A DNA stretch of 64,000 nucleotides, taken from assembly GCA_963765145.1 (NCBI GenBank), contig CAVXVG010000026.1:160001-224000 (forward strand), written 5' to 3'. Under the pieces are notes generated by a model. It was not told the DNA's origin. It worked only from the letters and a program-made list of their open reading frames with translations, and made no database searches. The stretch comes from Parachlamydiales bacterium. Lineage in GTDB: Bacteria; Chlamydiota; Chlamydiia; Chlamydiales; JAJFMK01. This document shows, piece by piece, positions 5,562 to 48,285 of this stretch. Position 1 is the first letter of the stretch; the number at the start of each line of letters is the position of its first letter. Made by a program: the position numbers and the translations under genes.

Positions 5562-5667
5562 TGTAGCTTAGGCTTTAGCCTGAGTTCGTTTTTGCGGGTT
5601 TTAACCCGCAAGATTCCAGCAGGAATAAAGTCCTGAAAAACGAGCTCAGGCTAAAGCCTAAGCTACA
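5562..5667. repeat. 106-bp palindromic MITE/REP-like element (family A), intact copy between convergent genes
   Basis: TGTAGCTTAGGCTTTAGCCTGAGTTCGTTTT...AAAACGAGCTCAGGCTAAAGCCTAAGCTACA with two internal hairpins; interrupted copy at 17655-18051. Confidence 0.9.
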
Positions 5668-8564: not shown

Positions 8565-8702
8565 CCCTTGCCCCTGCCCGGTTTATTAATCAAAGAGAGC
8601 TTTAGTTCGCAACGCGTTTGGAGTGCGCAAGTCCTCTTGCGCTTTCACTTTTCACTGACAAGTCAAAGCTAAACAGGAGTTTAGCACTCCAAGCGCTTCG
8701 CG
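8565..8702. repeat. Hexamer arm (CCCTTG-type) followed by a family E palindromic element
   Basis: CCCTTGCCCCTGCCCG 8565-8580; GCGTTTGGAGTGCGCAAG...GTTTAGCACTCCAAGCGCTTCGCG 8602-8702; related copies at 17589-18119, 27448-27517 and 48027-48190. Confidence 0.8.
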
Positions 8703-15170: not shown

Positions 15171-15311
15171 CCCTTGCCCTTGCTCGAATTTTTGCCTTAG
15201 ATGTTTTCTGGACACATTAAACAGGCCGTTTATTAAAAGCTTTTCGGGCAAGGGCAAGGGCAAGGGCAAGGGCAAGGGCAAGGGCAAGGGCAAGGGCAAG
15301 GGCAAGGGCAC
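15171..15311. repeat. Inverted hexamer-array element with no gene inside
   Basis: (CCCTTG)2-CTCGAA at 15171-15188; (GGGCAA)10-GGGCAC at 15246-15311. Confidence 0.9.
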
Positions 15312-15393
15312 GTTTAAAATTAGGCAAAGGCATTCTTTTGACAATAAAGGAGCTTTCTATAGAATCAAATTTCTATAAAAGAGGGTTTCTTAA

Positions 15394-15987: not shown

Positions 15988-17592
15988 ATGAGCCTAACTG
16001 TTTCTACTTATCATACTCCGGTACGTGTTGCTTCTGTCACTCAAGCGCCCACGGTTGCTGCTGTTTTAAATTTTGCTGAAAAAATGGCAACTTCAATTCC
16101 TCCAAACCGGAGGATTGAAAGGCCTGTTTTTTGGATCCAGACCGGCTTTGAACGGTTGATGCGGATCGTTTGCCGGGTTGCTATCTGGGTCTTCAATCAT
16201 GGCGCGATGCAACGAGCTAAAGAAGAGATGCAAACCGCGACGCCGGAAAGGATTTGCGACCTTGCCAAGCCATTTGCCCCGTTTTTCCCCGAATTTGCCT
16301 TATTGGCTTTTATTTACGGCGATAAAAATGATGCAAAAATCAAGGAATTAGAAGCGCTTTGGCTGCCATATGGATATCTCCTAACATCGGATCTATCGTC
16401 TAGCCTTGTGCAAAAAGAGGCCGAAAAACGAAATCTTTTAAACCCATTTGCAGATTTGATCACGTTTGAGGTTGCGAATTCTTCGTTTTCAGAAGAGGCC
16501 AAAGTTGAAAAGGCGCTAGACCTGTTGCAAGTAGCATCAAGTTCGCTGCGAAAAGACAACCTCGATTTTATTGCCCATGTGATTTCTGAGACCTTTATTG
16601 CTCTTTTTCCAGAGGGGATACCAGACCACAAAACAGACTTGTGGGATCAATTAGAAGACCTAATAAGCGATGCAGAGACAATCGGCGGCCAAAAGAGGGC
16701 AGAATATTTAAAAGATCATCTATTGATCTTTGTAAAAACGTTTCTAAAAGGGTCTGAAGATGTTCTTATGCGTCTCATTCGGGCCCATATCAGGCAAGCA
16801 AATCAACCTAATTCGGCAAAGTTGCTCAATCATCTTTCACAAGATAGATGGGCAAAGTTCATCAAAGACGACGAGCTGCGTATTATTCAAAAATGCCTTC
16901 ATGATGATGTCGAAAATGACCCTTCAATATTGCTTGGTACCCTTTTTAATAAATTTGAAGAAGCCGAAATGAATTTGCAGGATATGGCAGAATGTTATCT
17001 TTTTCCATCACCCTATCATGAGCGCTCGTCAGCAAAACTTATCAAATACTATTTTGATGATGGCTATCCGACTGGTACTGACGGGCTATATACAGCAATC
17101 TTTTCAATAGAAGATAAACAGATTCATTATGTTTCTCATCTTTTGCGTGAAAGCGGACAGGTGACCCTCATTCCTGGATTTACATCGCCAAAAGATCATG
17201 ATGCAAGGACCTATTATCTTTTAGAAGAAGACTTAAACCATTTGGAAAAGAAAAATTTTGATGGAGTTAGTCAGATGTTGGAAAGGCAAAGTTTTGACCT
17301 GATCCAAGCAGGATTTAAAGATTGGAAATTCAGCATTGAGAATCTCCGTAAGCTGGCTAAACTTTATCAAGACAAACTCGATACGGTTAAACTGTCCTTT
17401 GTCTCTGTTGGGCGCAAAGAAAGGCTTGCAGGTGACGAGGTGGAAGCGACCCGTTTAGAGTTGGTTAAACGGATGGAAGAGGCGTGGAGAACAAAATTTC
17501 CTGAAGACAAGAAGTTTTCCTTGGCCGAGTTTCGCGAGATCGAACTCATGGATGAGCTAAACGAGCTCATCAAAATCCTGGAAGAGCCTTAG
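15988..17592 (+). CDS. Hypothetical helical protein (possible secreted effector)
   Basis: 534-aa ORF with Ser/Thr-rich N-terminus; no recognisable domain. Confidence 0.6.
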   Translation: MSLTVSTYHTPVRVASVTQAPTVAAVLNFAEKMATSIPPNRRIERPVFWIQTGFERLMRIVCRVAIWVFNHGAMQRAKEEMQTATPERICDLAKPFAPFFPEFALLAFIYGDKNDAKIKELEALWLPYGYLLTSDLSSSLVQKEAEKRNLLNPFADLITFEVANSSFSEEAKVEKALDLLQVASSSLRKDNLDFIAHVISETFIALFPEGIPDHKTDLWDQLEDLISDAETIGGQKRAEYLKDHLLIFVKTFLKGSEDVLMRLIRAHIRQANQPNSAKLLNHLSQDRWAKFIKDDELRIIQKCLHDDVENDPSILLGTLFNKFEEAEMNLQDMAECYLFPSPYHERSSAKLIKYYFDDGYPTGTDGLYTAIFSIEDKQIHYVSHLLRESGQVTLIPGFTSPKDHDARTYYLLEEDLNHLEKKNFDGVSQMLERQSFDLIQAGFKDWKFSIENLRKLAKLYQDKLDTVKLSFVSVGRKERLAGDEVEATRLELVKRMEEAWRTKFPEDKKFSLAEFREIELMDELNELIKILEEP

Positions 17593-18119
17593 TCCGCGCC
17601 AGCGTTTGGAGTGCTAAACGGCCTTGTTGCATAATTAATCGCCATCATGAGAAATGTAGCTTAGGCTTTAGAGCCACTTGCAAAAATCAGTTCTGCTGGA
17701 AAAATAGGCCCGTAAGGGCCGAAATATGAAAGCCCTGGTCGAAGGCCAGGGTAAGAGTTGTAAATAGAAATTGGAGTCCTGAAGGGACGACATATCTTAT
17801 TCTAGAAATAACCTAGAAGGCAATTATGCCGTCCTTTCAGGACTCCAATTATATTTCACATTTGTAACCCAGGCCTTCGGCGCTGGGCTTTCATATTTCG
17901 GTCCTTCGGACCTATTTTCTAAAGAATGGCCCACTATTCGAATTTTGCAAGTCCCTCTTTAGCCTGAGTTCGTTTTTGCGGGTTTTAACCCGCAAGCTTC
18001 TAGCAGGACTAAAGTCCTGCAAAACGAGCTCAGGCTAAAGCCTAAGCTACAATGTGTATGCGAATTCTATTTGATTATGCAACAAGGCCGTTTAGCACTC
18101 CAAACGCTTCGCGGACTAA
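17589..18119. mobile_element. Five-level nested palindromic element E[D[A[B[C]]]] filling the intergenic space
   Basis: Concentric IRs: E+D 17589-17635 / 18074-18119; A split 17655-17671 / 17957-18051; B 17672-17685 / 17943-17956; C 17701-17918. Confidence 0.85.
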
Positions 18120-18544
18120 CTGGCGAAGGATTTTATCTTTTGTAACAGGTAGATGGTGCCGTTTTGCTTGATCTGCATCTCTTTGAGAGTGTTGATTGCA
18201 TCATCCATTGCGTCATTCCCTATCAATGGATTGGTAAATTTTAACCACCCCAAAGAGTGAGCCTGCACTTTTAAAAAGTGGGCAATTTCGATAGCTACAG
18301 GTGTGAGCTTCTCGATCTCTTCTCGCAATTGCCGATAAGTCTTGTCTTTCATCAAAAGGACAGAAACGACGTCTTCGTCCGGCGGGATGATCCAATCCTC
18401 GGTAGGGGTTCCTGGCAAATTAGTTGCCTCTACTTGCCCTTCTACTTTTTCCCATTTTTCAATTTTCAATTTCTGAAAACTTAAAAGGGCAGACAGTAAG
18501 TTGTTCAAAACATCGGCGTCGTATTTTTTATTTCGTTTGGTCAT
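18116..18544 (-). CDS. Hypothetical protein coupled to htpX
   Basis: 142-aa ORF; ATGA overlap with the htpX stop. Confidence 0.65.
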   Translation of the reverse strand: MTKRNKKYDADVLNNLLSALLSFQKLKIEKWEKVEGQVEATNLPGTPTEDWIIPPDEDVVSVLLMKDKTYRQLREEIEKLTPVAIEIAHFLKVQAHSLGWLKFTNPLIGNDAMDDAINTLKEMQIKQNGTIYLLQKIKSFAS

Positions 18545-19452
18545 CTTATAGATATCTCTAACAGATGTTGGATTCTTTCTTCAAGAGGAGGATGCGAAGC
18601 GAATAGATTGAACCACCCTTTAGGCGTAGAAATTTTGAAGGCTTGAACAGTTTGTTGCCCGGCATCTCGAGGGTCTTGAATCGCAATCACTTGCTGCAAT
18701 TTTTTTAGAGCACGGACCATTTTGTCTCGCCCTGCAAGAGCAGCTCCCCCTTCATCTGCCCGGTACTCCCTTTTTCTTGAGTAGGTGGCAATCACGATCA
18801 TTCCAAGAAACATAAATACAGTTTGGAAAAGCATCACGCAAAGAAAGTATCCCATGCCCAAAGAGTCTTGGTTATTTTGGCTATTGCCAGATCTTGTTAC
18901 GACGAGGGCAAGGATCCTTGCCAAAAACATGACAAAAGCGTTCACGATGCCCTGCAGCAAAGACATGGTCACCATGTCACCGTTGGCAACGTGAGAAATT
19001 TCATGGCCTAAGACCCCTTCAATTTCGGCATCATCCATCCGATCGAGCAATCCGGTTGAAACAGCGACAAGAGCTTTTCTGCTCGATGCCCCGGTTGCAA
19101 AGGCGTTGACTTCAGGAGATTGGTAGACCCCCACTTCTGGCATGCCAGGAAGGCCGGCCTGTTTTGTCAGCTTGCTGACAATATCCATCAGTCTTCGGTA
19201 TTGTGGCGAAGAGGTGTTTTCTGGGATGATTTCCATCCCTGTCTGCCATTTTGCCATTGTTTTAGACAAAAGAAGGGATATGATGGAGCCTGCCATCCCC
19301 CAAATTAGGCAAAAAATGGCCAGCGTTTTAAGATCGACACCATGGTTGGTCAGATAAGGTTGAATGCCAAACAGGTTAAGGACAATAGTAATTGTGGTAA
19401 CTACCAGAATGTTAACGAGTAAGAATAAAGTAACACGCTTAAAAATTGACAT
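18541..19452 (-). CDS. htpX: Zinc metalloprotease HtpX (M48)
   Basis: NAFATG, LGHEISHVANGDMVT, SRKREYRAD, FASHPPLEERI. Confidence 0.95.
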   Translation of the reverse strand: MSIFKRVTLFLLVNILVVTTITIVLNLFGIQPYLTNHGVDLKTLAIFCLIWGMAGSIISLLLSKTMAKWQTGMEIIPENTSSPQYRRLMDIVSKLTKQAGLPGMPEVGVYQSPEVNAFATGASSRKALVAVSTGLLDRMDDAEIEGVLGHEISHVANGDMVTMSLLQGIVNAFVMFLARILALVVTRSGNSQNNQDSLGMGYFLCVMLFQTVFMFLGMIVIATYSRKREYRADEGGAALAGRDKMVRALKKLQQVIAIQDPRDAGQQTVQAFKISTPKGWFNLFASHPPLEERIQHLLEISIR

Positions 19453-21961: not shown

Positions 21962-22960
21962 ATGATGAAGCCGCTAAAACGTGTTGCCATTACTGGGGCA
22001 GCAGGTCAAATTGCCTATAGTCTTTTGTTTCGGATAGGAAATGGAGAGCTGTTTGGCCCTGATACCCCTGTCGCCTTGCATCTTCTTGAAATTCAAGATG
22101 TTTTGCCCCATTTGCATGGCACAGTCATGGAGTTGGAAGATTGTGCTTTGCCTTTGCTAAAAGAGGTGAAGACTGGCTCTGACCCGTTTAAAGTCTTTCA
22201 GGATGTCGATCTTGCCTTGCTCGTCGGTGCAAAGCCCCGCGGACCTGGAATGGAGAGGAAAGACCTGCTTTGGGAAAACGGAAAAATCTTTGTCGAGCAG
22301 GGTGCTGCCCTCAATAAAGCGGCAAATCCTGACTGTAAAGTGATTGTAGTAGGCAATCCCTGCAATACCAACTGCTGGATCGCAAGAGAAAAAGCCCCCA
22401 GCCTAAAGCGTGAAAACTTTTTTGCGATGACAAGGCTGGATGAAAACCGTGCGCGTAGCAAACTTGCAGGCCATTTATCTGTGACGGTACCCGATATTAA
22501 GCATTTAGCCCTTTGGGGTAACCATTCAGCGACTCAAGTGCCCGATATTTTTCATGCCGAAGTGAAAGGTAAACCCCTTTCAAGTTTAGGCATCGATCAA
22601 AAATGGTTGGAAGAGGAATTTATCAAGCAGATCCAAACCAGAGGGGCCGATGTAATCAAGGCACGGGGCAAATCTTCAGCCGCTTCTGCAGCCCATGCTG
22701 TGATTGAAACCGCCCGTTTTGTTTCTGGGCTCGAAAAGAGTAACGATTGGTTTTCGGTGGCCCAAGATAGTTCGAATAACGCCTATGGAATACGGGAAGA
22801 CCTGATTTATTCCTATCCATCTGAGTATAAAAATGGACAGGTAACGCCCATTGGCGGCATAGAAAATAACGCCTTCATCAAAGAAAGAATGCAAATCAGT
22901 GAAAAAGAGTTACAAGAAGAGATGGATCAAGTGTGGTTCTTTTTAAGGGGGACAAGTTAA
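21962..22960 (+). CDS. mdh: Malate dehydrogenase (type 2)
   Basis: [46 protein letters not shown]. Confidence 0.95.
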
Positions 22961-22962
22961 AG

Positions 22963-24115
22963 ATGGATGCGGAAGTTCTATTTACCATCACAAATGAACA
23001 GCTTGATACAGGTTTAAGGGGCTTTCCGATTGGAACTGTGACCACCTCGACGGTCAACCCGGAAAAAGGGCTCTATTACCGAGGAATGCCTGTTTCTGAT
23101 TTAGTCGATAAAAGCCCTGAAGAGGTGATTTACCTCCTATTTGAAGGCCATCTGCCAAGCAAAGATGAACTGGCAACCTTTTCTAAAGAGCTGAGAAAAC
23201 GCGCATCGCTCAACCCCAAAGTTAAAGAGGCTGTGTTGAGACTCCCCCGAGAAGTCTCTCCAATGGCTTTGCTGTCGATGGCCATCATGATTGTAGGTGG
23301 TTTTGAATCGAAAGGGGAGTGGAAAGAAGATGCCCTTCGGCTGGTTGCCTTGATGCCGAAAATCACAGCTCTTGTGATCAATCACCACGCCAATTTGGGT
23401 GACACCCCAAAATCCAACGAAGAACTTGGCTACGCAGAAAACTTCTTGTCGATGCTCAATATTCCTAACAAGTCAAAAGAGCTTTTGGACATCTTGAGGT
23501 TGTTTTTGCTGCTTCGCTTTTGACCATGGCGGCGGTAATTTATCGACGTTTGTTGGCAAAGCGGTTGCTTCCGGCTTAGAAGATCTTTTTGGATCGATTG
23601 CAGCTAGCATGAATGCTTTGGCAGGCCCTCTCCATGGCAGAGCCAATGAGGATTGCCTTATTTTTAACCAGTCTTTGATGAAAGAAGTAGGCCCTCAACC
23701 AACCGAAGAGCGTATTGAAAAAGCTTTACGAGGCCGGTTAGAAAGAAAAGAGCTAGTGTTTGGGTTTGGACATGCTGTTTTAAGAGTGGAAGATAGCCGA
23801 GCTAAAGTGCTTTATGATGCAGGCCAGCAGCATTTTCCTAACGACCCAATGGTTCAGTTTGCCTTGATGTTGAGAAAGGTTGGGCCTAAAGTTTTGAAGG
23901 AGAATCCAAAAATTTCGTCTCCTTATCCGAATGTTGATGCTATTTCGGGAAGTGTTTTAATGGCAGCCGGTTTCCCTTATCCAGAGTATTTCACTCTGCT
24001 CTTTGGGTTATCGCGAGTCGTCGGCATTTCTGCCCAGATCGTCCACGAGCGAGTCGTTGCTCGCGACGGAAAGGGCGTCCCCATCTACCGCCCTAAATAT
24101 ATCTACAAGCAATAA
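22963..24115 (+). pseudogene. gltA: Citrate synthase split by a +1 frameshift near 23518-23521 (pseudogene or sequencing error)
   Basis: ...CTT CGC TTT T GAC CAT GGC GGC GGT gives FDHGGGNLSTF after removing one T; LAGPLHGRAN, GFGHAVLR, YPNVD. Confidence 0.85.
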
Positions 24116-24839: not shown

Positions 24840-24872
24840 TGTAGCTTAAGCTAAAGAGCCACTTGCAAAAAT
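24840..24872. repeat. Partial A::B junction copy
   Basis: TGTAGCTTAAGCTAAAG-AGCCACTTGCAAAAAT, compare 17655-17687. Confidence 0.7.
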
Positions 24873-25114
24873 GGGCCAATCTACTTTTTCGTCTTTTCGA
24901 AAAAATTGCACTTGTTTTCGATTCGGCTAACCCACAAGGGGTTAGGCCTCATTTCCAAACAAGCATTTTTTCTAAAATCCTGAAAAATCAGATGCACTCT
25001 CCCCGAAGCCTCCATCTTAGATCTTCGCCTCTTTTCTAAGATTTTATTCTATTAATTCCCCTTCCATTTTATTAAAATAACTGCTATAATATTTTCCTTT
25101 TTTTCGGAGAAACC

Positions 25115-31647: not shown

Positions 31648-34600
31648 TTAATCGGGTGAGAGTTTTGAAATCCTTGATAATGGGCCAATAGGCTTTTGGG
31701 TATACTGAAAATGGGATATCGTGTTAGTTGCTTTATCATAGAGGACTTCACAGTTGTACAATTTGCCATTTTTCCACATTTGAGAGTAGTGCATTATTGC
31801 ATTTGAAGCACCCTGGGGATCCTTCAGGGCTGCCATTGGTGATTGAATTACTTCATCCAGCATCTGAATTGGTATTCTTCTCTCAATTTCGTACATATGT
31901 TTACCTGCTGTATGAGTAAACTGAAACATTTCAGCTTCTTTTGCAGTAGAGATGATTGAAGGTAACTTAAAGGATGAGCTAGAGGCTTGAGAAGCGGCTT
32001 TCGTGAGCTTGAACTCGGAAATAAGAGACCGAACTGTAGCGAACCCGGATCGCAAAAGGGCAGGACTTTCTACGATTGCCATTTTGCCTAGGCTAAAAGC
32101 ACCTTTAGCAATGCCAGCAAGATTACCAGCCCATCTTGCTCCTGTGCGAGAATACTGGTAATAAGGATCTTGCGTATCGATAGAAAATTGATTAGCTACA
32201 AAGCCCTCTAAGCTATGCCTTCCATAAGAATAAGCTCTTTCAATTTCAGAATGATTGCCTCCCGATGCAACACCTACAACCGAATGAGCGGCCTGAAATG
32301 TGTCTAAACCAGCTTCGGAAAGACCGTGCAATATGCCCACAGAGATATGGACTGGAGGAGATGACTTATAAGTAGGTGAGGAAAAACGTCCATCGGGGTC
32401 GCGGAAGTTGATGGGGTCGCCGTTGGCGTAGGAATAGAGGTTGAGGGCGATGGGGTAACTGATCGGGTCTTGGCTGAGGAAACGGCCTGAGAGGGGGTCG
32501 TAGTAACGAGCGCCAAAATGGATGAGGCCAGTTGGATCTTGCTGCTTGCCTTGCCAGGTGAGGGATTGGGCGTAGGCGAGGAGTGAGGAAGCAGCTGGGG
32601 CTGGCGTAAGTGGACCGTAGGCGGAAGGAAGTTCCTTTTTCCAAGAGATCTCTTTGGAGGTCAGAACTGCGATGAGGTTGCCGAGGGCATCGTTTAGGAG
32701 ACCCACGGAGTTTCCATTGTTGTCGAGAATGAGTTCGCAGGAAGTGGGGCCATAGATTTTCCAGAAGGTGTTTGAACCTGATTTTAGGCCAATTTCCTGG
32801 AACTCATGTTGGGGGTCGTAATAAAAGAGCGTCTGTTGAGGGAAGGGCCACCATCCAGAAGAGTAGGTTGTTTTTAGGCGACGGCCGAAAGGATCGTAAG
32901 AGGCTTTCCAGGTTGAGTTTGGGCTGGTCACTTGTGTTAGCCTGCCCCAAGGATCCCATTGGTATGTCGTGTTATCTCTAGAGATGGTTTGACCTAGAGA
33001 ATCATAAGTTGCTTTGATTGTTTTGGAATCAATGAGTTCTGTGATGATTTTACCAAAGGCATCGATGCCTTCTTGTGGAACTTGGTGGTGATTGGCAGAA
33101 GTGCGGATGCCAGAGCCTAGTTTGTTGTGATCGAAGGTAAATTGTTCAACCCCTGCAGATTTGAGGTGGCCTCTAGGTGTATAGGAGAAGTTTTTGTCGT
33201 TGTGAGAAGAAAGTTTTCCTGAAGGGGTCCATTTCAGGGATTCGGTGTGGGTTTGGCTGGATAGATGGGAGATGATAGTTTCTGGAAGTGAGGCTTTGTA
33301 ATGGAGGTCGACGCTTATGAAGGGGGTCGTTTTGTGGATCAGAGTGCCATTTAGGCTGTAATCGTAGGAAAGAGTGTGGCCTGAGGTAGAAACGGTTTGT
33401 AGGTGGCCGGCCTCGTAGACAAACTTTCTTTTATGGTCATTGATGCTGAGAGTGCGACTGTTCGGGCTCCACGATTGATCTGTCTGCTGGATCAGAGTGG
33501 AGTTAAGGAAGATCGATTCAGAAATGAGTCGTCCGCAGGAGTCGTAAGAGCGGAGCACTTTGGAGTGATCTTGGCTCGACTCTTCGGCTGAAGTGATGAG
33601 GCCTCTGTTATCGTATGTAAAAGATCGGGTGAAGGGGCCGACTATTTCTTTTTCGAGACGAGATAAAGCATCGTAAAAATATGTGTGGGTACGATCCATG
33701 GGGTCGGTCGCATGTTGTAAAAGCCCTTTTTCGTAACTGTATTGCCACTGTTGAGAGATTTCAGAACCGGCATGAAGGTATTCTATAGTTTTTCTCCCCA
33801 TTTGGTCGTAGGAGGCATTCCATGTCAGGTTTTGAGGAAGGTGACAGGCGATGAGATGGGAGTCGGCATCATAATCGTATTGAATGACAGCTTCATCTGG
33901 GAGAATTTTTTTGGTTAGACGGCCGAAAGGATCGAACTGGAAGTGTGTTGCATGTCCTTCTCCATCGATTGATTCAATGCATTGGCCGCAAGGATCGTAG
34001 TGATAAAGTTGAGTGATTAAACCATCCTCGGTTTTGAGAGGTTGACCCAAAGTATTGACCCAAGTTGAGATGGTTTGGTCGTCGGAGATTTTTTGGTAAA
34101 AGCTTCTTTCTGGTTCGTACACAAGATGGATTTCGGCAATGAGGATGCCATTTTGACTAAAGGTTTCACTTTTGATGAGCTGTCCAGCCTGATAGTGCTG
34201 AATAGTTTTTTCTCCGGAGGGAAGATGGCAAGTGATGGTATCCCCATTGTAATTCCATATTGTTTGTTGCCCATCAGGTGAGGTTTCGGTTTTGGGTCGA
34301 CCGAGGCCATCATAGGTTTTTTCCCAGGTGTTTCCTTCCCCATCTGTCGAAGCGGTGAGGAGGCCACGGGAGTCATAGCATTGTGTTTCTGTAATGCCTA
34401 CTGTGGTTCGAACTACTTTTCGGTTAAGGTCGTCGTAAAAGATGTTAGAAGAGATCCCAGTTCTTGTTTCTTGGATGGGTCGGCCGAAATAATCGTAAAC
34501 GAAAAAGCTTTCAGTACCATCTGGATAAACCTCATTTTTGAGAAGGCCATTAGTTGTGTAGCAGCGTGTTGTTTTGGCACCCATAGGCGAAAGAATGGAA

Positions 34601-37600
34601 GCAATAAAACCACCCTCTTCGTAAGTATAATGAGTGGTCAACCCGTCAGTTGTGATTGAGATGGGGCGACCAATCGGGTCTAGAGTGCGAGAAGTAGAAA
34701 CGCCAAGTGGGTTGACCTCTTCGATCAGTTCTCCACGAGCATCATATTCGTAAAGCGTATAGGCAAAGCCTGCTTTTTTTATTTCGCCTGTCGAAGTCAC
34801 TTGAGTTAATGATTGTCGGGTGGCCATCACTTGGCCAGCAGCGTTGTAATCGATAAAGAGGGTGTTCAGTGGGTCTGGTCCTTGTTGCCAGATCTTCTGA
34901 TTGTTTAAGTTATATCCAAAACGAATAGTTGAGATGAGTTTTCCTGAACGATCATAAACAGAGGTGGTTAGGTTATTTCCCATGATGTCGTACTCATGGC
35001 TCTCTTTTCCATCGGGAGAAACTTTCTCAATACATTGTCCTTGTCGGTTGTATTTGAAGGTTGTCACAACGTTTGGGTCGTCTGTTCCAGTTTCTTGGAT
35101 GATCTGGATAGGGAAGCCATTTTTATAGATCCAACGGGTTACAGCACCGTTGGCGTTTTGACAGGTGAGTTGACCCTTTTCGTCATATTCAAAATGAGTT
35201 GTGGAAACCCGCTGATTGTCTATCCAGCTTTCAACCCTTTTGGGCAGATAGACAAAGTGTTCGTGGTACACAGTGCGAGTGGATTTATTGAGCGTTATCT
35301 CTTCAATGCAAAGATGTTGATCGTTGTAAATCAATTGTTTGTCAGTAACCTCTTCTCCTATTAGCGTAAGGGAGGTTGGGTTGCCAAAACTGTCATACCT
35401 GCATTCGGTGATTAAGCCCCGTTTGTCTTGTGTGGTTTTTAAGCTGTTGAGATAGGCTCCAAGGCCTTCCCAAGGCAAAACTTGCCCTGTTTTAGCATCA
35501 AAATAGCTTTTTTCATCGATGAACCACGATTGGTAGGTGATCTCTCCAACAGGATCGGTGATTTTATAAATCTGTTTGTCGTAGATAAGGTATTGAGTGG
35601 TTCCACCTTCTCCATCGATGACAATAGTCATTCCTTCATCAAATTTGAAAGTAGCGCTAGTGACAATTTGTTGCTGAGGGCCTACAGGAGAACGTTGTTC
35701 GAAGACTCGCCCTTTTTCATCATAGCTATTTTCAAGAACTCTGCCACTGGGGCGAGCCTCTCGTACGATTTGGTGGTGGCTGTCATAGGTGTAGTTGATA
35801 AAAGCATCATTTGGGAGAGTGACCTGGTCTAAATCACCTTGGTAGGTGTAGTGGTATTTAACCCACCGACCATCTTTAGTGAAGGCTTCAGAGATTATTC
35901 CTTCAGGGTTGTAGTGAAACCTTACAAAATTGTCGGTAGAGTTTTCTATCTTAGCGAGTTGCTCACCGTCGTAATGGAAATTAAGGGTGTTGCCAACGGC
36001 ATCGATCCATTCCCTCAGAAGACGGTTTTTAAAGATCCTTTTGGAACCATCTGATCCGTACAGGATGTTATCTTTGATGTAGGCATGGAATGGATTGGCA
36101 GTTCCACCAAAGTTGCGAAGTTCAGGGTTGTCTTCAGCAAAGACCTCGTAACGATCTCCATTTAAGCGGTAGACGATCACTGTCCCATCCATTTCAGCTG
36201 CAAACAGTTTGTCTCCGTTTTCATGGAGGTAAGGGTTCAAGCCGAGTTTCCAACCAAAGCCAAAAACCCCAGGAAGAGGGCTTTGGTTGCTGTAGTTACG
36301 CCGGATCTGTAAAGGGAAAGGTCCTGGGAGTGTGAGATCGACCTCATCCACATAAAAGGCCCCTGTAACAACATCAACAGGGTCAGAAACAAGGTTGGCT
36401 CCCAATTTGTGGCCAGGTCTGACATCCGCTGTTAGCCATGTTTTCTGAAACTGTTCTAGGATTTCGTTATGAGATTCTGATTTCGGCAGAGATACGAACA
36501 AATCACTAGGCTTTATTAGGGTAAATTCAGGTTTTCTTATGTCAGTAAGAAAGTTAGGTGGCAGGCGAGAACCAAAGCCTCCATGCATCAAACGAAGGTT
36601 GTCAGAAATGAGGGCAGACATTTTCAAAGGATGAAAAATCAATGTGCCTATTCCAGTATAGGAAGGTGGATTTTCGTCACTGGATATAAGCTTTGGTGTC
36701 ATATAGGCATAAGCAAACTGCCCATTTTTTGGTTCGTTAAAAGTCTGACTTAAAGTTTCCCATTGCCCTGCTGCAAGAGCTCTTAGAGGAAAGCAGGACA
36801 TCGCATCGGCTTCCTTAAAGCTTTTTGGAGTAAACGTTAAAAACCCGGCCTCTTTTTTATTAGAGATTTCTAAGAGCTTAATTGTAGAAATTGCGTGTGG
36901 ATCTTGGAATATATCCCGGAGAATTTGGTGCTCGTTGGATGAAATATCGCAAATAAGAAGGTCGCTCAATTGTCTTGGAAGAGGGTTGGTGTCCAAATCG
37001 CTTTTAGATTGAAGACAAAACTGCATGTCGACTTGAGGAAAGACGAGTTGACCAGTTAATGGGTCTGGCGAAAGTTTGGCAAGGCCTACAGCAAAATAAG
37101 TGAGCGGGGGGAGTTTATGAAGAGAGGCAAGAGCTGCCTCGGTTCGGCTAACTTTTTCAAAGTAGGCCATTCCAATGAAAGAAAGAAGCCGATCAATTTT
37201 TTTATTCTCGTCTTTTTCCTTTTCGAAAGCCCTTCTAAACCAAGATAATTGCTTTGATGTTACCCTTCCATAATGAGCGCACAGGGCTGCACGTGTTCCT
37301 TTGGCGAAGGAGAATGTCCTAGAGGTCTTTCCAAGAAGAGTTACTTCAAGGTTTAGGCTATAATCTGTTTCATCTAGTGCTAATTTTAGGTCGTGGTTAC
37401 CATCATCATCTATCTGCAAGCAAAAAAAGTGTCGTCCATCTGGCTGTGTAAAGAAAGCGATGTCTCCTGCACGGCAATTCAGAAGATGAGCCGGATAGAT
37501 ACCAGAGCATTTTTTGCCGGGGTTCTCATTAGACGAAATGGTAATCCATATAAGGGCTAGAGGATCTATAGATGAATCTGCTCGGTCGCAAGTCTCTTTT

Positions 37601-38916
37601 ATAGTCGGACGGGGGAAATCTTCCCAACTATCAAACTGTTTCTTAGAGATTTTTCGATGTGTTCCGATGTCTTGTAGAGATAAATTCTGAAGTTTTAGCT
37701 CCTCCTCTAGAAACCGGAGGAATAAAACACCTGCAGTGTCATTGCCGTCGGAGCCAATCAGTTTCGTGATCCGATCATCCTGAGTGACATAACTCTTTAT
37801 CCATCGATCTGAGCTATTAAAGGCTTCAGGTAAAACACTATACAGATCATATCCCTCTTCCACCTGAACCTCTTTGAGCCAGGGGTAGAGGGTGATCTCT
37901 CTTCCGTCAATTTCTAGAATGACTCCTGGGAAGGCAAGGTGGGTCTTGTTCTTTTCCGGCAACTGGACGAAGAATAGATTTTCAAGGAAACGATTTGGAA
38001 GAGAGAGGTAGGGGCTTCGGCAAATAATCTGGGCGTCATAGCCCGCATGTCTCAACAGATAAACTAACAAATCGCATTGCTCCCTTGGAGAGCCTTGCTC
38101 TTCTAAAAAAGTACCCATAGGGTTACGAGCACAAGGAAACTCTATAAAAATATTTCCTTCGTTTTGCAAGTTGATCAGATCAAGTTCAATCTCATTATGA
38201 ACATACTGTGCCAATGCAAGCGGATCTTTTTTCAAATCTTGCACTAACTGATTCAGAACCGGATAAGAAACATGATCAGGGAGAAATCTGCATGTATGGG
38301 GTAAAACCATTTGCTGTTTGCCCAATGGTTTTAAAAGATGAAGTTGAGCAGACTTTTTTAGTTGCCAAGGGAGAGGTTCGAAGAAAATATGGGAGTAAAA
38401 ATAAGCTCTACGCGTTATTTCTTGTTCTTGTAGGGCTTTTCGCGAAAGAGCAGGGTAAAAAACCTCTTCTGGTTTTGAAGGGGTTTTTACTTTGAGATTG
38501 ACTAAGAATTGATCAGCAGATGCCTTCAAAGCTTTTATTTCGTTAAGCTCTTCATTTAGATCTTGAATTTTTTGGTCACAGATCTCCAAGTCAGCTTTAG
38601 TTAACTTTTTCCATTCATCGATCTTTTTATCGGTTAGATTTTTTTTCGCTTCATCTTGTGCCAATATGGCTAAAACTTGCTTCAAGTTAGCTTTAGATGA
38701 AGCATATGCATTCAGTGCCTTTTCGAGAGAATCTATACGTTTTTCTGCTAGATCAGGGGGAATGTTTTGAGCATTTTCCCAAAGCACTTTTCCTGCCTCG
38801 CTCGCTTCCTTCGCAGTTTTTCTATGACTGTTGCAATTTTTTTCGTAGCTATTTTCGGAGATGACGAGGGAAGGGATGAGAAGGCAGAAGAATAAAAGAG
38901 AGTAGAATGTTTTCAT
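31648..38916 (-). CDS. Rhs1: signal peptide, inactive transglutaminase-like domain, DUF6531, YD/Rhs core and predicted RNase/tRNase toxin tip
   Basis: MKTFYSLLFFCLLIPSLVIS; GSPREQCDLLVYLLRHAG; DPVDVVTGAF...FGFGW; ARYYDPLSGRFLSQDP...PINFRDPDG; tip KHM...DPQG...EVLYD...HFQY. Confidence 0.9.
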   Translation of the reverse strand: MKTFYSLLFFCLLIPSLVISENSYEKNCNSHRKTAKEASEAGKVLWENAQNIPPDLAEKRIDSLEKALNAYASSKANLKQVLAILAQDEAKKNLTDKKIDEWKKLTKADLEICDQKIQDLNEELNEIKALKASADQFLVNLKVKTPSKPEEVFYPALSRKALQEQEITRRAYFYSHIFFEPLPWQLKKSAQLHLLKPLGKQQMVLPHTCRFLPDHVSYPVLNQLVQDLKKDPLALAQYVHNEIELDLINLQNEGNIFIEFPCARNPMGTFLEEQGSPREQCDLLVYLLRHAGYDAQIICRSPYLSLPNRFLENLFFVQLPEKNKTHLAFPGVILEIDGREITLYPWLKEVQVEEGYDLYSVLPEAFNSSDRWIKSYVTQDDRITKLIGSDGNDTAGVLFLRFLEEELKLQNLSLQDIGTHRKISKKQFDSWEDFPRPTIKETCDRADSSIDPLALIWITISSNENPGKKCSGIYPAHLLNCRAGDIAFFTQPDGRHFFCLQIDDDGNHDLKLALDETDYSLNLEVTLLGKTSRTFSFAKGTRAALCAHYGRVTSKQLSWFRRAFEKEKDENKKIDRLLSFIGMAYFEKVSRTEAALASLHKLPPLTYFAVGLAKLSPDPLTGQLVFPQVDMQFCLQSKSDLDTNPLPRQLSDLLICDISSNEHQILRDIFQDPHAISTIKLLEISNKKEAGFLTFTPKSFKEADAMSCFPLRALAAGQWETLSQTFNEPKNGQFAYAYMTPKLISSDENPPSYTGIGTLIFHPLKMSALISDNLRLMHGGFGSRLPPNFLTDIRKPEFTLIKPSDLFVSLPKSESHNEILEQFQKTWLTADVRPGHKLGANLVSDPVDVVTGAFYVDEVDLTLPGPFPLQIRRNYSNQSPLPGVFGFGWKLGLNPYLHENGDKLFAAEMDGTVIVYRLNGDRYEVFAEDNPELRNFGGTANPFHAYIKDNILYGSDGSKRIFKNRLLREWIDAVGNTLNFHYDGEQLAKIENSTDNFVRFHYNPEGIISEAFTKDGRWVKYHYTYQGDLDQVTLPNDAFINYTYDSHHQIVREARPSGRVLENSYDEKGRVFEQRSPVGPQQQIVTSATFKFDEGMTIVIDGEGGTTQYLIYDKQIYKITDPVGEITYQSWFIDEKSYFDAKTGQVLPWEGLGAYLNSLKTTQDKRGLITECRYDSFGNPTSLTLIGEEVTDKQLIYNDQHLCIEEITLNKSTRTVYHEHFVYLPKRVESWIDNQRVSTTHFEYDEKGQLTCQNANGAVTRWIYKNGFPIQIIQETGTDDPNVVTTFKYNRQGQCIEKVSPDGKESHEYDIMGNNLTTSVYDRSGKLISTIRFGYNLNNQKIWQQGPDPLNTLFIDYNAAGQVMATRQSLTQVTSTGEIKKAGFAYTLYEYDARGELIEEVNPLGVSTSRTLDPIGRPISITTDGLTTHYTYEEGGFIASILSPMGAKTTRCYTTNGLLKNEVYPDGTESFFVYDYFGRPIQETRTGISSNIFYDDLNRKVVRTTVGITETQCYDSRGLLTASTDGEGNTWEKTYDGLGRPKTETSPDGQQTIWNYNGDTITCHLPSGEKTIQHYQAGQLIKSETFSQNGILIAEIHLVYEPERSFYQKISDDQTISTWVNTLGQPLKTEDGLITQLYHYDPCGQCIESIDGEGHATHFQFDPFGRLTKKILPDEAVIQYDYDADSHLIACHLPQNLTWNASYDQMGRKTIEYLHAGSEISQQWQYSYEKGLLQHATDPMDRTHTYFYDALSRLEKEIVGPFTRSFTYDNRGLITSAEESSQDHSKVLRSYDSCGRLISESIFLNSTLIQQTDQSWSPNSRTLSINDHKRKFVYEAGHLQTVSTSGHTLSYDYSLNGTLIHKTTPFISVDLHYKASLPETIISHLSSQTHTESLKWTPSGKLSSHNDKNFSYTPRGHLKSAGVEQFTFDHNKLGSGIRTSANHHQVPQEGIDAFGKIITELIDSKTIKATYDSLGQTISRDNTTYQWDPWGRLTQVTSPNSTWKASYDPFGRRLKTTYSSGWWPFPQQTLFYYDPQHEFQEIGLKSGSNTFWKIYGPTSCELILDNNGNSVGLLNDALGNLIAVLTSKEISWKKELPSAYGPLTPAPAASSLLAYAQSLTWQGKQQDPTGLIHFGARYYDPLSGRFLSQDPISYPIALNLYSYANGDPINFRDPDGRFSSPTYKSSPPVHISVGILHGLSEAGLDTFQAAHSVVGVASGGNHSEIERAYSYGRHSLEGFVANQFSIDTQDPYYQYSRTGARWAGNLAGIAKGAFSLGKMAIVESPALLRSGFATVRSLISEFKLTKAASQASSSSFKLPSIISTAKEAEMFQFTHTAGKHMYEIERRIPIQMLDEVIQSPMAALKDPQGASNAIMHYSQMWKNGKLYNCEVLYDKATNTISHFQYTQKPIGPLSRISKLSPD

Positions 38917-42627: not shown

Positions 42628-43065
42628 CCCTTGCCCTTGCCCTTGCCCGAAAAAAAAATGGATCATGAAAAATTGACTGTGTACCAGACGGCAATAGAAT
42701 TTGTCGTTCTTGCTAACGAAATATCAGAGCATTTTCCGAGAGGAAGAGCGTATTTTACAGATCAACTTCAGCGTGCTGCTCTCTCAGTGCCATTAAATGT
42801 TGCAGAAGGAGCAGGGGAGTATGCAAATGATGAAAAAGCTCGGTTTTATCGGATGGCTAAGCGATCTGCTACCGAATGCGCTGGTATTTTAGATGTATGT
42901 CAGCGTCTGAAACTCATTGAAGAAAATTTATATCAAAAAGGGAAAGAGTTGCTGTTTGGAATAGTGTCTATGCTGGTCAAAATGGCTCAGAGGAGTAATT
43001 AATTGGGCGAAGGACAAGTTTTTTTAGGGCAAGGGCAAGGGCAAGGGCAGGGGCACGGGCAAGGG
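42628..43065 (+). mobile_element. Putative mobile unit: four-helix-bundle gene bracketed by inverted hexamer arrays
   Basis: (CCCTTG)3-CCCGAA 42628-42651; (GGGCAA)3-GGGCAG-GGGCAC-GGGCAA 43027-43062. Confidence 0.6.
42658..43002 (+). CDS. Four helix bundle protein (23S rRNA IVP / Avd-like family)
   Basis: HEKLTVYQ, DQLQRAALSVPLNVAEG, FYRMAKRSATEC. Confidence 0.92.
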   Translation: MDHEKLTVYQTAIEFVVLANEISEHFPRGRAYFTDQLQRAALSVPLNVAEGAGEYANDEKARFYRMAKRSATECAGILDVCQRLKLIEENLYQKGKELLFGIVSMLVKMAQRSN

Positions 43066-44340
43066 GTGAGTCGACCAAAAGCGATGATTCTGTCGTTTTT
43101 TCACCACTCCTACGAAAGGGAAGGTGCAAGCGATTATTTGGATGAACTTGCCCTTTTAACCGACACTTTCGGTATTGATGTGATCTACAAGGAGGCCATT
43201 TATCTTCGCGAGATCAATTCTGCTACCTACATCTCGAAGGGCAAATTAGCCGATCTGGTTGATTTGGTCGATGACGAATACGATGTCGATCTGGTCATTT
43301 TAGACGATGAGGTCAGCCCTGCCCAGCAGCGGAATTTAGAGAAAACTTTTAAGAAAAAAGTGATCGATCGGAACGAGGTCATCCTTGGGGTGTTTGGACA
43401 AAGGGCCAGAACCAAAGAGGCTAGACTTCAAATTGAATTGGCCGAAAAAACCTACCAATTCCCCAGATTGACCCGTCTTTGGACCCACTTATCTCGTCAG
43501 GCAGGTTCTGGAGGCTCCGGTTCAGGAGGAGGAGGCTACCAAAAGGGGGAGGGAGAAAAGCAGATCGAGCTAGACCGGCGCATCCTGAAAGATGAGATTG
43601 TCAAAATTAAACGAGAGTTGGACGAGGTCAAAGGGATACGCGAGGTTCAACGGAGAGATCGTAAGAGAAATGCGGTCCCGACTTTTGCCTTGGTAGGTTA
43701 TACCAATGCGGGCAAGTCGACCCTTTTAAACGCTATGACAGGCTCCGATGTCTATGTTGAAAATAAATTGTTTGCAACGCTTGATACTACCACCCGTCGG
43801 ATGTCTTTGCCAAACAACCAAGAAGTTTTGGCAATCGATACTGTCGGTTTCATCCGCAAGCTTCCCCATCTTCTAGTTGCAGCTTTCAAAAGCACACTCG
43901 AAGAATCTTTAGAGGCCGATATTTTGCTTCATGTGGTCGACATTAGCCACCCCATGGCAGAAGAACAGATCCTTACAACCGAGAAAGTACTGAAAGAGCT
44001 AGGCGCAGAAAACCGGCCAAGCTTGTATGTATTTAATAAAGTCGATGCTCTCGAAGATGAAAAAAAGCTGCAGCTTTTGAAGATCCAATTTCCGAAACAT
44101 GTTATAGTATCTGCTCTCACTAAAGAGGGGTTTGACGATCTCTATGCTTTTATGGAGCAAGAGATCAAAGCATTGCGGGAATACGTCACCTTCCGCATTC
44201 CTCAAAGTGATTTTAAAGTGGTCGCCGAGCTGATCCGTTTGGGCACCCTTTTAAAGCAGGAGTACGAGGAGAATGATGTGATTCTCCATATCGAACTTCC
44301 AAGAGCAGTTTCCGGAAAATATGAACTCTACAGAGTCTAA
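43066..44340 (+). CDS. hflX: Ribosome-splitting GTPase HflX
   Basis: RARTKEARLQ, GEGEKQIELDRR, VGYTNAGKS, LFATLD, DTVGFI, NKVD; start set to GTG 43066. Confidence 0.95.
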   Translation: MSRPKAMILSFFHHSYEREGASDYLDELALLTDTFGIDVIYKEAIYLREINSATYISKGKLADLVDLVDDEYDVDLVILDDEVSPAQQRNLEKTFKKKVIDRNEVILGVFGQRARTKEARLQIELAEKTYQFPRLTRLWTHLSRQAGSGGSGSGGGGYQKGEGEKQIELDRRILKDEIVKIKRELDEVKGIREVQRRDRKRNAVPTFALVGYTNAGKSTLLNAMTGSDVYVENKLFATLDTTTRRMSLPNNQEVLAIDTVGFIRKLPHLLVAAFKSTLEESLEADILLHVVDISHPMAEEQILTTEKVLKELGAENRPSLYVFNKVDALEDEKKLQLLKIQFPKHVIVSALTKEGFDDLYAFMEQEIKALREYVTFRIPQSDFKVVAELIRLGTLLKQEYEENDVILHIELPRAVSGKYELYRV

Positions 44341-45556
44341 AACATTTAAAATCGTTACTCTAGGTTGCCGAACCAATCAATACGAGGCTGAAGGGTTTCG
44401 TCAGCAGATGCTCACCATCGGAATGGGTGAAGCAGAAAACGACGATGCGCCGGACGTTTGCGTAGTCAACACCTGCACTGTGACAGATGCGGCCGATAAA
44501 GAGAGTCGTTTGCAGGTCAGGCAGCTGGCGAAAAAATATCCCCATGCAAAAATTGCTGTGACCGGTTGCTCTGTAGATAATGATCCTGATGGATATGGGG
44601 CGATGAAAGGGGTCGAAGCAGTCAGACGCAACAACGAAAAAGAGGCGCTCCTTCTTCCACTTTTCCCGGAACTTGAGCATATTCCTTTTAAAATAGAGGG
44701 ATTTGATGGCCATACCCGCGCTTTTGTCAAAGTGCAAGATGGGTGCAACTCCTTCTGCACCTACTGCATCATTCCCTATACTCGTGGTCGCTCCAAGTCC
44801 CGTTCGATTCCGGAAGTACTTCAAGAGGTCGAAGGGTTAGTAGCCAACGGATACAAAGAGGTTGTCTTAACCGGTATTAACATTGGCGATTTTGATGGGG
44901 GGTTATCAGACCTTGTCAAAGCGGTCGATAAAGTCGATGGGCTTGAAAGGATCAGGATCTCTTCTATCGACCCGGATGAAGTGGACGAAACATTAATGAG
45001 AACTGTGCTAGAGGCAGAAAAAACTTGCCTATCGTTCCATTTAGTGCTCCAGTCTGGCTCAAACGTGGTTTTAAAGCGGATGAACCGGAAATATACACGG
45101 CAAATTTTTCTGGAGACTTGCCACCGTTTAAGAGAAGCTGCACCCGATTTTGAATTTACAACCGATGTGATAGTCGGATTTCCCGGAGAAACGGAAGAGG
45201 ACCACCAAGAGACATTGTCGGTGATCCATGAGGTGGGATTTGCCAAAGTCCATATGTTTCCTTTTAGCCCACGAAAAAGGACTCGGGCAGCCCTTTATCC
45301 CGATCAAATTGATCATGAAACGAAACAGAGAAGGAAAAAAGAGGTGCTCGATGCCTCGATTGCCTCCGGTTTTCGCCAAAGAGAGAAATATGTGGGCCGG
45401 GTCATGAAGGTGCTGGTTGAAGGGCAAGATGGCAAAGGACATACCGACAACTTTTTGCCTGTTCAAATAGAAGGACAGGTAGAAAGAAATGAGATGGTTG
45501 AGGTGCTCTTAACCGAAAACAGTGAAACACTATTGAAGGGGAAGAGAGTATGTTGA
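44321..45556 (+). CDS. mtaB: tRNA t6A37 methylthiotransferase
   Basis: TLGCRTNQYE, NTCTVT, VQDGCNSFCTYCIIPYTRG, HMFPFSPR. Confidence 0.92.
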   Translation: MNSTESKTFKIVTLGCRTNQYEAEGFRQQMLTIGMGEAENDDAPDVCVVNTCTVTDAADKESRLQVRQLAKKYPHAKIAVTGCSVDNDPDGYGAMKGVEAVRRNNEKEALLLPLFPELEHIPFKIEGFDGHTRAFVKVQDGCNSFCTYCIIPYTRGRSKSRSIPEVLQEVEGLVANGYKEVVLTGINIGDFDGGLSDLVKAVDKVDGLERIRISSIDPDEVDETLMRTVLEAEKTCLSFHLVLQSGSNVVLKRMNRKYTRQIFLETCHRLREAAPDFEFTTDVIVGFPGETEEDHQETLSVIHEVGFAKVHMFPFSPRKRTRAALYPDQIDHETKQRRKKEVLDASIASGFRQREKYVGRVMKVLVEGQDGKGHTDNFLPVQIEGQVERNEMVEVLLTENSETLLKGKRVC

Positions 45557-46470
45557 GGCAAATTTCAATCAGAGAACGGTTTTTTCCTTTTTCCCACACA
45601 CCAGGCGTGAAAGTGTTATTGCCGGGCACATCCCTTTGTTTGCAGGTGTATCCCACAACTGTTTCTTGCTTCGACCTGGAAGGGACTCAAAAGGATGCCT
45701 TTTCACTACCGCTTGAGGGGGCTATTTCCGACTTCACTGTTGTTCAAGACTTGGAGCAGGGCGCCATTTTAATTTTTGGTAAGGATCAAAAAGGTTTTTT
45801 TCGGTTTCGCTGCACAAGAGATCTAGAGTTTAAGCAGGAAAAAGGAGGGGCATTTCACCGCACCCTTTTCAAGCCGGAAGTGTTTTTTCAAGCTCCTAGT
45901 GCCATTGAAAGGTTGTTGCACACCTCTTTACAGAAAAGAAGTGTAGAAAGGCTGGTAGAAAAGCAGGATTGGGTGCAATTGCTGCAACCTTTGTATCGGC
46001 TGATGCAATGGTACGAACCGTTAACATTGGACATGCCGCTTGCCTTAGATGCTTACATTTTAGGGGGCTTTGAAGGGCTACTAGTTCCAACAGGGCAAGA
46101 TACCAAAAAAATGGGTGTCCCTTTTTCCTTTCCTTCTCCTATTCAATTTTTAAGAGCTCTTCGAAACAAAGTAACCTCTTTGTTTGTAGAAGAAAACAAT
46201 GAGGAGTTGGTCTTATGCCCTCATATCCCTCAAGAAATGCCTGCAGGCAGAGTCAAAGGGGTTAAAATAGGCGACTACTCCCTAGATATCGAATGGAGGA
46301 AAAAGATGCCGCGAAGGGTTCAACTTTCAGCATCAAAAGAAAAAACCTTCCATCTAGCTTCAAAAGGGCTAGCATCCGTTCGGTTGGATAAAACCCAACA
46401 GTCCCTCACTCACGCCATTGAGATTGCTCCCCCAAAGCCCCTCTTCTTCGACCGCTTCCAAAAAACCTAG
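45550..46470 (+). CDS. Conserved hypothetical protein (C-terminus resembles glycoside hydrolase C-terminal beta domains)
   Basis: PFSHTPG, VVQDLE, LCPHIP...AGRVKG...DIEW; coupled to mtaB. Confidence 0.6.
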   Translation: MLRQISIRERFFPFSHTPGVKVLLPGTSLCLQVYPTTVSCFDLEGTQKDAFSLPLEGAISDFTVVQDLEQGAILIFGKDQKGFFRFRCTRDLEFKQEKGGAFHRTLFKPEVFFQAPSAIERLLHTSLQKRSVERLVEKQDWVQLLQPLYRLMQWYEPLTLDMPLALDAYILGGFEGLLVPTGQDTKKMGVPFSFPSPIQFLRALRNKVTSLFVEENNEELVLCPHIPQEMPAGRVKGVKIGDYSLDIEWRKKMPRRVQLSASKEKTFHLASKGLASVRLDKTQQSLTHAIEIAPPKPLFFDRFQKT

Positions 46471-48026: not shown

Positions 48027-48190
48027 GCTAAACAGCCTTGTTGCATAATTAGCCAATCCAGGCAGTGAGATCTCGAGGGAAATTTGAGGTTGTGAAAAAT
48101 AAATAAACGCTCGAAGGGGGTTTTAGCGCTATCCTACCTGAATTTTATCGAACTCGCTGCGAACAAACAAGGCCGTTTAGTACTCCAAAC
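48027..48190. repeat. Degenerate E::D composite
   Basis: GCTAAACAGCCTTGTTGCATAATT ... AACAAGGCCGTTTAGTACTCCAAAC. Confidence 0.75.
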
Positions 48191-48196
48191 TGCAGG

Positions 48197-48278
48197 CTAG
48201 AAGGTGGCTTGGAGGCCGGCGCTTAAGAAGAAGTTGGAGGCATTTCTCCAGACGTCACCGCCGTATTCAGCCCACAGC
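48197..48278 (-). pseudogene. Duplicated 3' tip of the beta-barrel gene at the right window edge
   Basis: 48198-48278 matches 63876-63956 at 77/81 nt; reads LWAEYGGDVWRNASNFFLSAGLQATF*. Confidence 0.9.
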
Positions 48279-48285
48279 TCTAAAC

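Follow-up and report, generated by a model that had tools for sequence, protein, structure and literature searches.

A five-layer nest of hairpin repeats and DDE-transposon shells at a convergent gene junction in a Parachlamydiales bacterium

We describe a nest of five concentric palindromic elements, E[D[A[B[C]]]], at 17589..18119 (531 bp) of a 64,000-nucleotide stretch of DNA from a Parachlamydiales bacterium, hereafter the window. The window corresponds to G000:C26:160001-224000, where G000 is the source assembly (2.68 Mb in 37 contigs, 84.8% complete), C with a number denotes a G000 contig, G001 and so on denote other genomes, and L with a number denotes fetched loci. The nest lies between two convergent open reading frames (ORFs), a 534-aa gene and a 142-aa gene behind htpX, and the concentric inverted repeats that an earlier note had proposed from the letters of the sequence are found in place; the nest is real and well resolved. 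The source is likely an environmental chlamydia, a close transposase relative bearing a Chlamydiales name. Two sorts of element take turns in the nest. By sequence comparison, A and C are hairpin repeats with arms on either side of HUH/Y1 transposase genes; E is a hairpin repeat of the same sort, for which the candidate gene is a partial one from outside G000. D and B are DDE-transposon shells that share their ends with full-length insertion sequences (ISs) of the same genome. The features are, from left to right:

15988-17592, plus strand: hypothetical gene of 534 aa, TAG stop (17590-17592) within the long E end
17589-17594, plus strand: long-form E end, TTAGTC
17595-17619, plus strand: E left arm, with mini-hairpin, GGAG tag (17608-17611) and 5' strand of the repetitive extragenic palindromic (REP) stem
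17611-17619, plus strand: 9-mer target of D within the E left arm
17620-17635, plus strand: D left terminal inverted repeat, 16 bp, starting GGCC, the same end as in the IS at G000:C2:1-1115
17636-17654: D left spacer, common to the 179-bp D[A] family and not from current IS ends
17655-17670, plus strand: left part of A, with GTAG tag, 5' stem and 4-nt loop TTTA (17667-17670)
17671-17957: B shell, 287 bp, inverted repeats 17671-17687 and 17943-17957, ends as in the IS at G000:C27:207333-208791
17704-17915: C, two inverted three-hairpin arms that match the flanks of the Y1 gene at G000:C24:56681-57127
17958-18051, plus strand: duplicated loop TTTA (17958-17961) and remainder of A
18052-18089, minus strand: right end of D, with spacer (18052-18073) and terminal inverted repeat (18074-18089)
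18090-18113, minus strand: E right arm, inverted 9-mer target copy at 18090-18098
18114-18119, minus strand: long-form E end, GACTAA, in which the minus-strand gene has its stop
18116-18544, minus strand: hypothetical gene of 142 aa, TAG stop 18116-18118, downstream of htpX (18541-19452)

The nest region folds at -187 kcal/mol (z = -24 relative to 100 shuffles). A structured-RNA reading is rejected, as no Rfam family reaches its gathering score in 17000-18700; Acido-Lenti-1 RNA (RF01687) gives weak matches in C, at best 33.5 bits and under its gathering score of 37. A search of 17500-18200 for a sigma-70-like promoter was negative. With the nest as query, BLAST returns 391 matches in G000, and a looser cut-off gives 216 merged loci. 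Motif counts exceed those of block-shuffled controls for E (354 vs 2), D (163 vs 6), A (113 vs 5) and C (36 vs 0), and for B are 157 vs 61 with a loose motif and 59 vs 2-4 with a stricter one. The five layers are all non-autonomous and also occur separately in the genome, and their nesting is far above chance.

Hairpin layers E, A and C and the adjoining stop codons

Layer E has the sequence hallmarks of a REPIN, an inverted REP doublet with many extragenic copies and compensatory stem variants. Free copies are doublets of ~95 bp whose hairpin bears a GGAG tag and has TCCT as its loop; in 88 clusters, two E arms are the sole content. E arms flank none of the six Y1 matches in G000. A candidate REP-associated tyrosine transposase (RAYT) is found at metagenome locus L241, which holds the 3' part of such a gene with a Y---NP motif, an E arm directly after it, and a score of 66.7 bits on NF047646 (cut-off 80). 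Because the neighbouring genes at L241 have no tblastn match in G000 and one of them has a G001 ortholog, this region likely belongs to the part missing from the G000 assembly. Of 29 loci with relatives of the L241 RAYT, two of them overlapping, 21 have GGAG-tagged hairpins close by, some of these hairpins almost identical to E, and an exact 18-mer of E is found in 2 of the 401 phylum genomes searched.

The outer arms contain the stops of both neighbours, as the earlier note had recognised: each TAG lies inside the TTAG or CTAA at the outer ends of E. Genome-wide, 46 of 323 E arms start at most 6 nt from the stop of an ORF of at least 120 aa, compared with 3.3 (standard deviation 1.7, maximum 9) at random intergenic points, and both ends are stop-adjacent in 2 of 125 paired E copies. 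The hexamer TTAGT[C/T] precedes 26 of the 323 arms (0.12 expected) and coincides with a stop only in the two at the nest, so that it represents a recurring long form of the E end. This hexamer likely supplies the stop of the left gene; in the right-hand copy at the G001 junction described below, the frame of the left ortholog extends 25 codons past the stop position of this gene and overlaps the opposite gene. Loose contig ends near the left gene, from public sequencing runs, are too short to show the stop of a relative. The stop of the right gene lies within one codon of its G001 position and may be native. The stop overlap is an extreme case of a genome-wide and already described tendency of REPs to abut stops: the ORFs beside a REP often have their TAG stop in its terminus, and where genes converge on a REP, both 3' ends are no more than 20 bp away from it (PMC3733652).

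Layer A consists of two inverted REPs, each with a 5' GTAG tag and a short hairpin, and occurs alone in 19 clusters. Its arms lie on both sides of a RAYT at C5:119344 that scores 103 bits on NF047646 (cut-off 80), and again around an apparently frameshifted RAYT at C28:46907 (G000:C28:46447-47350), where one A arm carries a B[C] insertion. By these features A is a GTAG REPIN with a candidate cognate RAYT in the same genome.

The arms of C align with both flanks of a short Y1 gene (C24:56681-57127, also cited as C24:56771) whose protein carries Y---Q--HH, the subclass 1.2 signature, and G000 has two complete free C copies. Family F resembles C, has its own Y1 gene at C21:219036 and is the commonest cargo of D. 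The D shell at G000:C26:256308-257298 has its F cargo amplified to about five tandem units, with a similar doubling at C5:56257-56680. At G001:C1:106702-107772 (L040:1170-2255), an intact Y1 gene for 150 aa, with inverted ends of the F type, lies within a D shell that has a 9-bp duplication and is itself in a degenerate E; a D shell around a Y1 gene is rejected as a common arrangement, being seen at just 1 of 30 related Y1 loci.

D and B shells and their insertion sites

The 16-bp ends of D, which begin GGCC or GGCG, are identical to those of an IS5-family element of 1114-1115 bp. G000 holds three copies of this autonomous IS, all at E 9-mers, one with an intact 317-aa frame and two frameshifted. 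The transposase (C2:97-1047) scores 296 bits on NF033579 (cut-off 140) and matches PF13737, and this profile, together with the length of ~1.1 kb, the 16-bp ends and the 9-bp duplication, points to the IS903 group of the IS5 family. Each of the three copies also has a B-like end motif within the 3' part of this gene (G000:C2:979-993).

An E-type 9-mer flanks 94 of 101 exact D ends and 124 of 163 loose ends, with a chance expectation of 1%. We found 58 D pairs and dropped three as contig-edge or mis-paired; in the 55 scorable pairs the target duplication, 9 bp of the E REP, is direct in 27, inverted in 9 and neither in 19. The GGCC on both sides of D, which the earlier note took as the flank of the insertion, is rejected as a target duplication since the autonomous IS has an inverted repeat that opens with these four bases. 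At the nest the 9-mers are inverted and the interior of E is missing. E copies with D in both arms exist in G000, and for this reason we consider it likely that the interior was lost by deletion between two D insertions or to a second target.

Loci of D-transposase relatives number 29, of which 15 have identifiable ends and 8 of these perfect 9-bp duplications. The closest relative (G147, 71%) is the sole one in an E-type REP, in the same register and in another family; relatives at or below 61% identity have 9-bp duplications at unrelated sites, and five further copies in G326 also sit in unrelated sites. Because only the closest relative is found in an E-type REP, REP targeting by this type of transposase is likely a derived trait of a narrow clade.

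The autonomous partner of B is a 1459-bp IS (C27:207333-208791) that encodes a 381-aa DUF772/DDE protein (C27:207462-208604; PF05598, PF01609) and that itself sits inside E[D[A]] with a TAAA duplication. In its DUF772 plus DDE domains, its length, which falls in the 1.3-1.9 kb range of the IS1182 family, its inverted repeats of ~16 bp and its 4-nt duplication (4-bp or structure-dependent in that family), it agrees with IS1182 elements; its best NCBIfam match is to IS1182 (NF033551), at 119.8 bits and thus below the cut-off of 270. Among 30 paired B copies, 22 are in the hairpin loop of A, 4 in that of E and 4 elsewhere, and in 26 of the 30 the duplicated 4 nt are the loop itself (TTTA of A, TCCT of E). 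Over all 30 copies the duplication is direct in 21, inverted in 7 and imperfect in 2, and a copy with an inverted duplication also occurs in the single-contig genome G001. The earlier note was right that A, intact at 5562-5667, is split by B in the nest; its 285-bp size and CTTTAG duplication are replaced here by 287 bp and TTTA, a register set by the autonomous IS and by copies in E loops. A 6-bp CTTTAG duplication, formally equivalent at the nest, is excluded by those copies and by free copies.

All four copies of a B-transposase relative in G282 (44% identity; L094, L098, L101, L103) duplicate the 5-nt loop of a C-like hairpin, whereas four copies of a relative in G103 lie at unstructured sites. 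An alignment-based scan, where a single-protein scan had given zero loci, yields 78 wider B-relative loci; ends were found in 22, of which 16 have 4-bp duplications and none has a perfect stem of at least 5 bp (ends were not found in the other 56). General loop targeting in the B family, not seen in these 22 of 78 loci, is therefore rejected and target choice is member-specific, which agrees with the heterogeneity cited for the IS1182 family (PMC5678879). Separately, one genome has six listed copies of a 1823-bp relative with B-like ends, all of them inserted with a CCGG duplication into a repeated target (L107-L112).

Neither shell shares a match of at least 24 bp with either IS, and only the inverted repeats are common to shell and parent. 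There is no support for a derivation of the shells from present ISs by internal deletion, or for their capture from a donor site that can be recognised; D and B do not keep the subterminal parent DNA that an internal deletion leaves in a classical MITE (miniature transposable element with inverted repeats).

These registers bear on the idea that no targeting took place, and that repeats passively piled up in intergenic safe havens and were homogenised by recombination. Several G000 sites do hold other repeats where relatives have E, pointing to some intergenic hot spots, but D enters at the same 9-mer and B duplicates the exact loop in A, in E and in sister genomes; this base-exact placement largely refutes the idea, and we regard it as very improbable.

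Composite units and formation of the nest

Without B, the D[A] of the nest is 179 bp long and 98-99% identical to five B-free copies. Its B[C] agrees at 285 of 287 positions with a copy that lies in the other arm of a free A, and different hosts contain eight B[C] copies that are 98-100% alike. The spacers that separate shell end from cargo are of few types, with the C-in-B copies sharing one spacer lineage. The presence of nearly identical D[A] units, and likewise B[C] units, in different hosts implies that A in D and C in B are inherited cargo, so that two targeted insertions suffice. Only D-into-E and B-into-A/E seem to recur as independent site-specific insertions, with A-in-D and C-in-B best explained as founder captures amplified as composite units, and the hierarchy of elements each targeting the next, as proposed in the earlier note, does not survive in that form.

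A five-step history in which each layer inserted separately at this locus, with A targeting D and C targeting B, could account for the 38 of 113 A arms that adjoin a D end and for the 15 of 30 B copies that hold C. The 54 D shells also form 32 spacer-pair groups with mixed ends, as expected if cargo entered shells more than once. We nevertheless judge this history improbable, given the shared spacers and the near-identical units; a cargo-free D that could have served as target is found in none of the 54 non-autonomous pairs, and spacer mosaics suggest that the count of groups is raised by recombination. Repeat cargo is present in all 54 D pairs and all 29 B pairs that are non-autonomous, a count that is partly circular as the cargo motifs were defined after the sequences were seen.

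Orthologous sites in relatives differ in the elements they carry. G001 has both flanking genes in the same order, the 534-aa ortholog at 38% identity, and lacks the nest at the junction; nests of the forms A[B[C]] and E[D[F]] lie at other places in that genome. The G001 junction holds a different IS, putatively IS1634-like by its motifs, with an unusually long direct duplication of ~74 bp, in the overlap of the two convergent genes (L074, L021; G001:C1:535950-537700). Orthologs of the 142-aa gene are present in G001-G003; the downstream gene in G002 was rejected as an ortholog of the 534-aa gene for lack of similarity, and G002 is thus not an empty site. Of 77 metagenome loci fetched, 25 have a complete E with usable flanks and 15 of these map to a syntenic G000 site. 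Six of the 15 sites have no E in G000, mostly since another repeat is there, and L242 and L233 carry D within an E that is uninterrupted in G000, in L242 as D[F]. Filled and empty states of a site are seen in this comparison; the earlier note had suggested looking for empty sites in related genomes.

The agreement with G001 also speaks to whether the five-layer order could be an assembly chimera built from abundant repeats. The inner layers each have 98-99% identical copies elsewhere, the assembly is in 37 contigs and no bridging contig is available. The junctions, however, are exact, with duplications as expected, D, B and C are also found side by side in three further clusters, single-contig G001 shows the same nest types including the inverted-duplication form, and the flanking gene order agrees with G001 on both sides; a chimera is highly unlikely.

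We consider it likely, from comparison of the copies, that the nest formed by two site-specific cut-and-paste insertions, of D[A] into an E REP and of B[C] into the hairpin loop of A. In such a scheme, a RAYT would have placed E just behind a stop codon at the junction of the convergent genes, an IS903-group transposase would have moved D[A] into E in trans, and an IS1182-like transposase would have moved B[C] into the extruded hairpin loop of A, these two steps in either order. The E interior would then have been lost, either by a transposase-made deletion to a second target copy or by recombination between two D insertions, to give the inverted 9-mers. The window has no transposase family among the Pfam matches of 36 scanned ORFs (of 65 of at least 100 aa), and candidate mobilising enzymes for all five layers, Y1 and DDE partners flanked by the same arms, are found in G000 or, for E, at L241; the earlier note was probably right in both respects, absence from the window and mobilisation in trans. 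The nest is likely selfish DNA, tolerated since REP sites would be harmless landing pads.

A number of findings weigh against this account. For E, the assigned RAYT is a partial gene of a different assembly and under the family cut-off, and the loose hairpin scan that gave the 21 of 29 loci also gave 30 matches in 208 kb of control DNA compared with 47 in 88 kb. The B transposase scores below the IS1182 cut-off, four of the 30 B copies lie outside A and E, and none of the 22 wider B-relative loci with ends found has a perfect stem of at least 5 bp; 19 of 55 D pairs lack a clean direct or inverted 9-mer, and the shell spacers match neither IS ends nor any donor site. The public sequencing runs listed as holding this DNA include no RNA run, and the shares are small in all of them; contigs built from four runs include none that spans the whole nest, and the account derives from sequence comparison.

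Surroundings, known systems and implications

The earlier note assigned every layer an independent copy in the window, which holds for A and E; the second D carries other cargo, the second B has lost its right end, and C is present outside the nest as half copies only (48300-48371, 63809-63825). The copies are:

2406-2682: second D shell, with different cargo (family F), in a degenerate E site
5562-5667: free intact REPIN A
8608-8702: free intact REPIN E
24840-24995, plus strand: A arm holding a B shell of the 163-bp type (from 24856), right end lost
48034-48371: degenerate D shell in an E relic, then a half copy of C

An 89-bp stretch occurs twice at 92% identity (48190-48278 and 63868-63956), each time beside a C arm. 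GGGCAA hexamer arrays lie at 15229-15320 and 43010-43077, and this array family also fills several G000 sites where relatives carry E. Pfam and NCBIfam scans of the 534-aa gene (15988-17592) gave zero matches. Elsewhere in the window, a putative citrate-synthase-like gene at 22933-24115, recognised by its translation, is split into ORFs 22933-23523 and 23609-24115; two large RHS-repeat paralogs (31648-38916 and 54114-61655) share 70-79% identity across long segments, and part of a third copy lies near 30186; a helicase/restriction-type protein (48529-53109) has 13 helicase-associated repeats at ~201-bp spacing; and a 94-bp repeat of 84% identity is found inside ORF 45550-46470 (46142-46235) and in an intergenic region (53299-53392).

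REPINs with RAYTs, REP-targeting ISs, nested elements and REP-derived stops have all been described. A and E resemble REPIN/RAYT systems as inverted REP doublets with a tetranucleotide tag, whose arms flank class-2 Y1 genes with a Y---NP motif, in E a candidate partial gene (PMC3116915, PMC3733652, bioRxiv 10.1101/2021.07.10.451892), and REPINs inserted into or beside other REPINs are known (PMC3116915). They differ in the GGAG tag and outer mini-hairpin of E, and in that REPINs here travel as cargo in DDE shells; the term GGAG is absent from the main text of PMC3733652 and PMC6006769. The proteins flanked by C and F are, like TnpA-Y1 subclass 1.2 and TIRtrons (PMC6006769, PMC3733652), short, with Y---Q--HH and long inverted ends. 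Subclass 1.2 is generally without typical terminal structures (PMC6006769), whereas the three-hairpin ends here form abundant gene-less doublets that ride in DDE shells.

REP-targeting ISs (IS1397, ISKpn1, IS621, ISPsy8, ISPa11, ISPpu9/10 and ISRm19/22) use one fixed REP position, as D and B do, and for ISPsy8 the insertion point is the hairpin axis and the duplication is short (PMC1525189, PMC3184786). Here, by contrast, an IS903-group IS5 element and an IS1182-like IS are concerned, mostly as cargo-bearing shells, and two targeting systems are chained through cargo. The D partner shares with the IS903 group its length of ~1.1 kb, one ORF, 15-16-bp inverted repeats and a 9-bp duplication (PMC3281130), and differs in being near-exclusive at one REP site. 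The B partner is likewise close to the IS1182 family in its length of ~1.5 kb, 16-17-bp inverted repeats, 4-bp duplication and DUF772 plus DDE_Tnp_1 domains (PMC5678879; ISPse1 row in PMC3281130). Stem-loop targeting by IS1272 is structure-dependent, with duplication of the loop alone as one modelled outcome (PMC5678879); IS1272 replaces the stem-loop, whereas B duplicates the loop and has a transposase under the NCBIfam IS1182 cut-off. A full-text search, with most subscription journals, ISfinder and supplements outside its scope, returned no paper on REPIN-carrying MITEs or shells nested or chained through REPs, and none on an IS903-group REP-targeting element.

The locus chains two unrelated transposition chemistries, though each ingredient is known. 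It raises the question of how an IS903-group enzyme, unselective in relatives, came to use one REP site, and whether an IS1182-like enzyme reads hairpin shape and not sequence, given that it duplicates the loops of two unrelated REPs and that a relative uses C-like hairpins. A broader and rather doubtful proposal is that DDE end shells are general vehicles for HUH/REP systems, needing or favouring hairpin cargo, homing to REP hairpins and able to carry a whole Y1 gene. The cargo in every non-autonomous D and B copy of G000 speaks for it; cargo-free B mini-shells of 47 and 79 bp in G001, and the single Y1 locus of 30 inside a D shell, speak against it. If true, REPINs and normally immobile transposases would have a second, cut-and-paste route of spread within and between genomes, and alternating HUH/DDE nests could extend themselves. 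If DDE shells can carry REPINs and Y1 genes, that would go some way towards explaining why RAYT-type genes, which are not self-mobile, are so patchily distributed.

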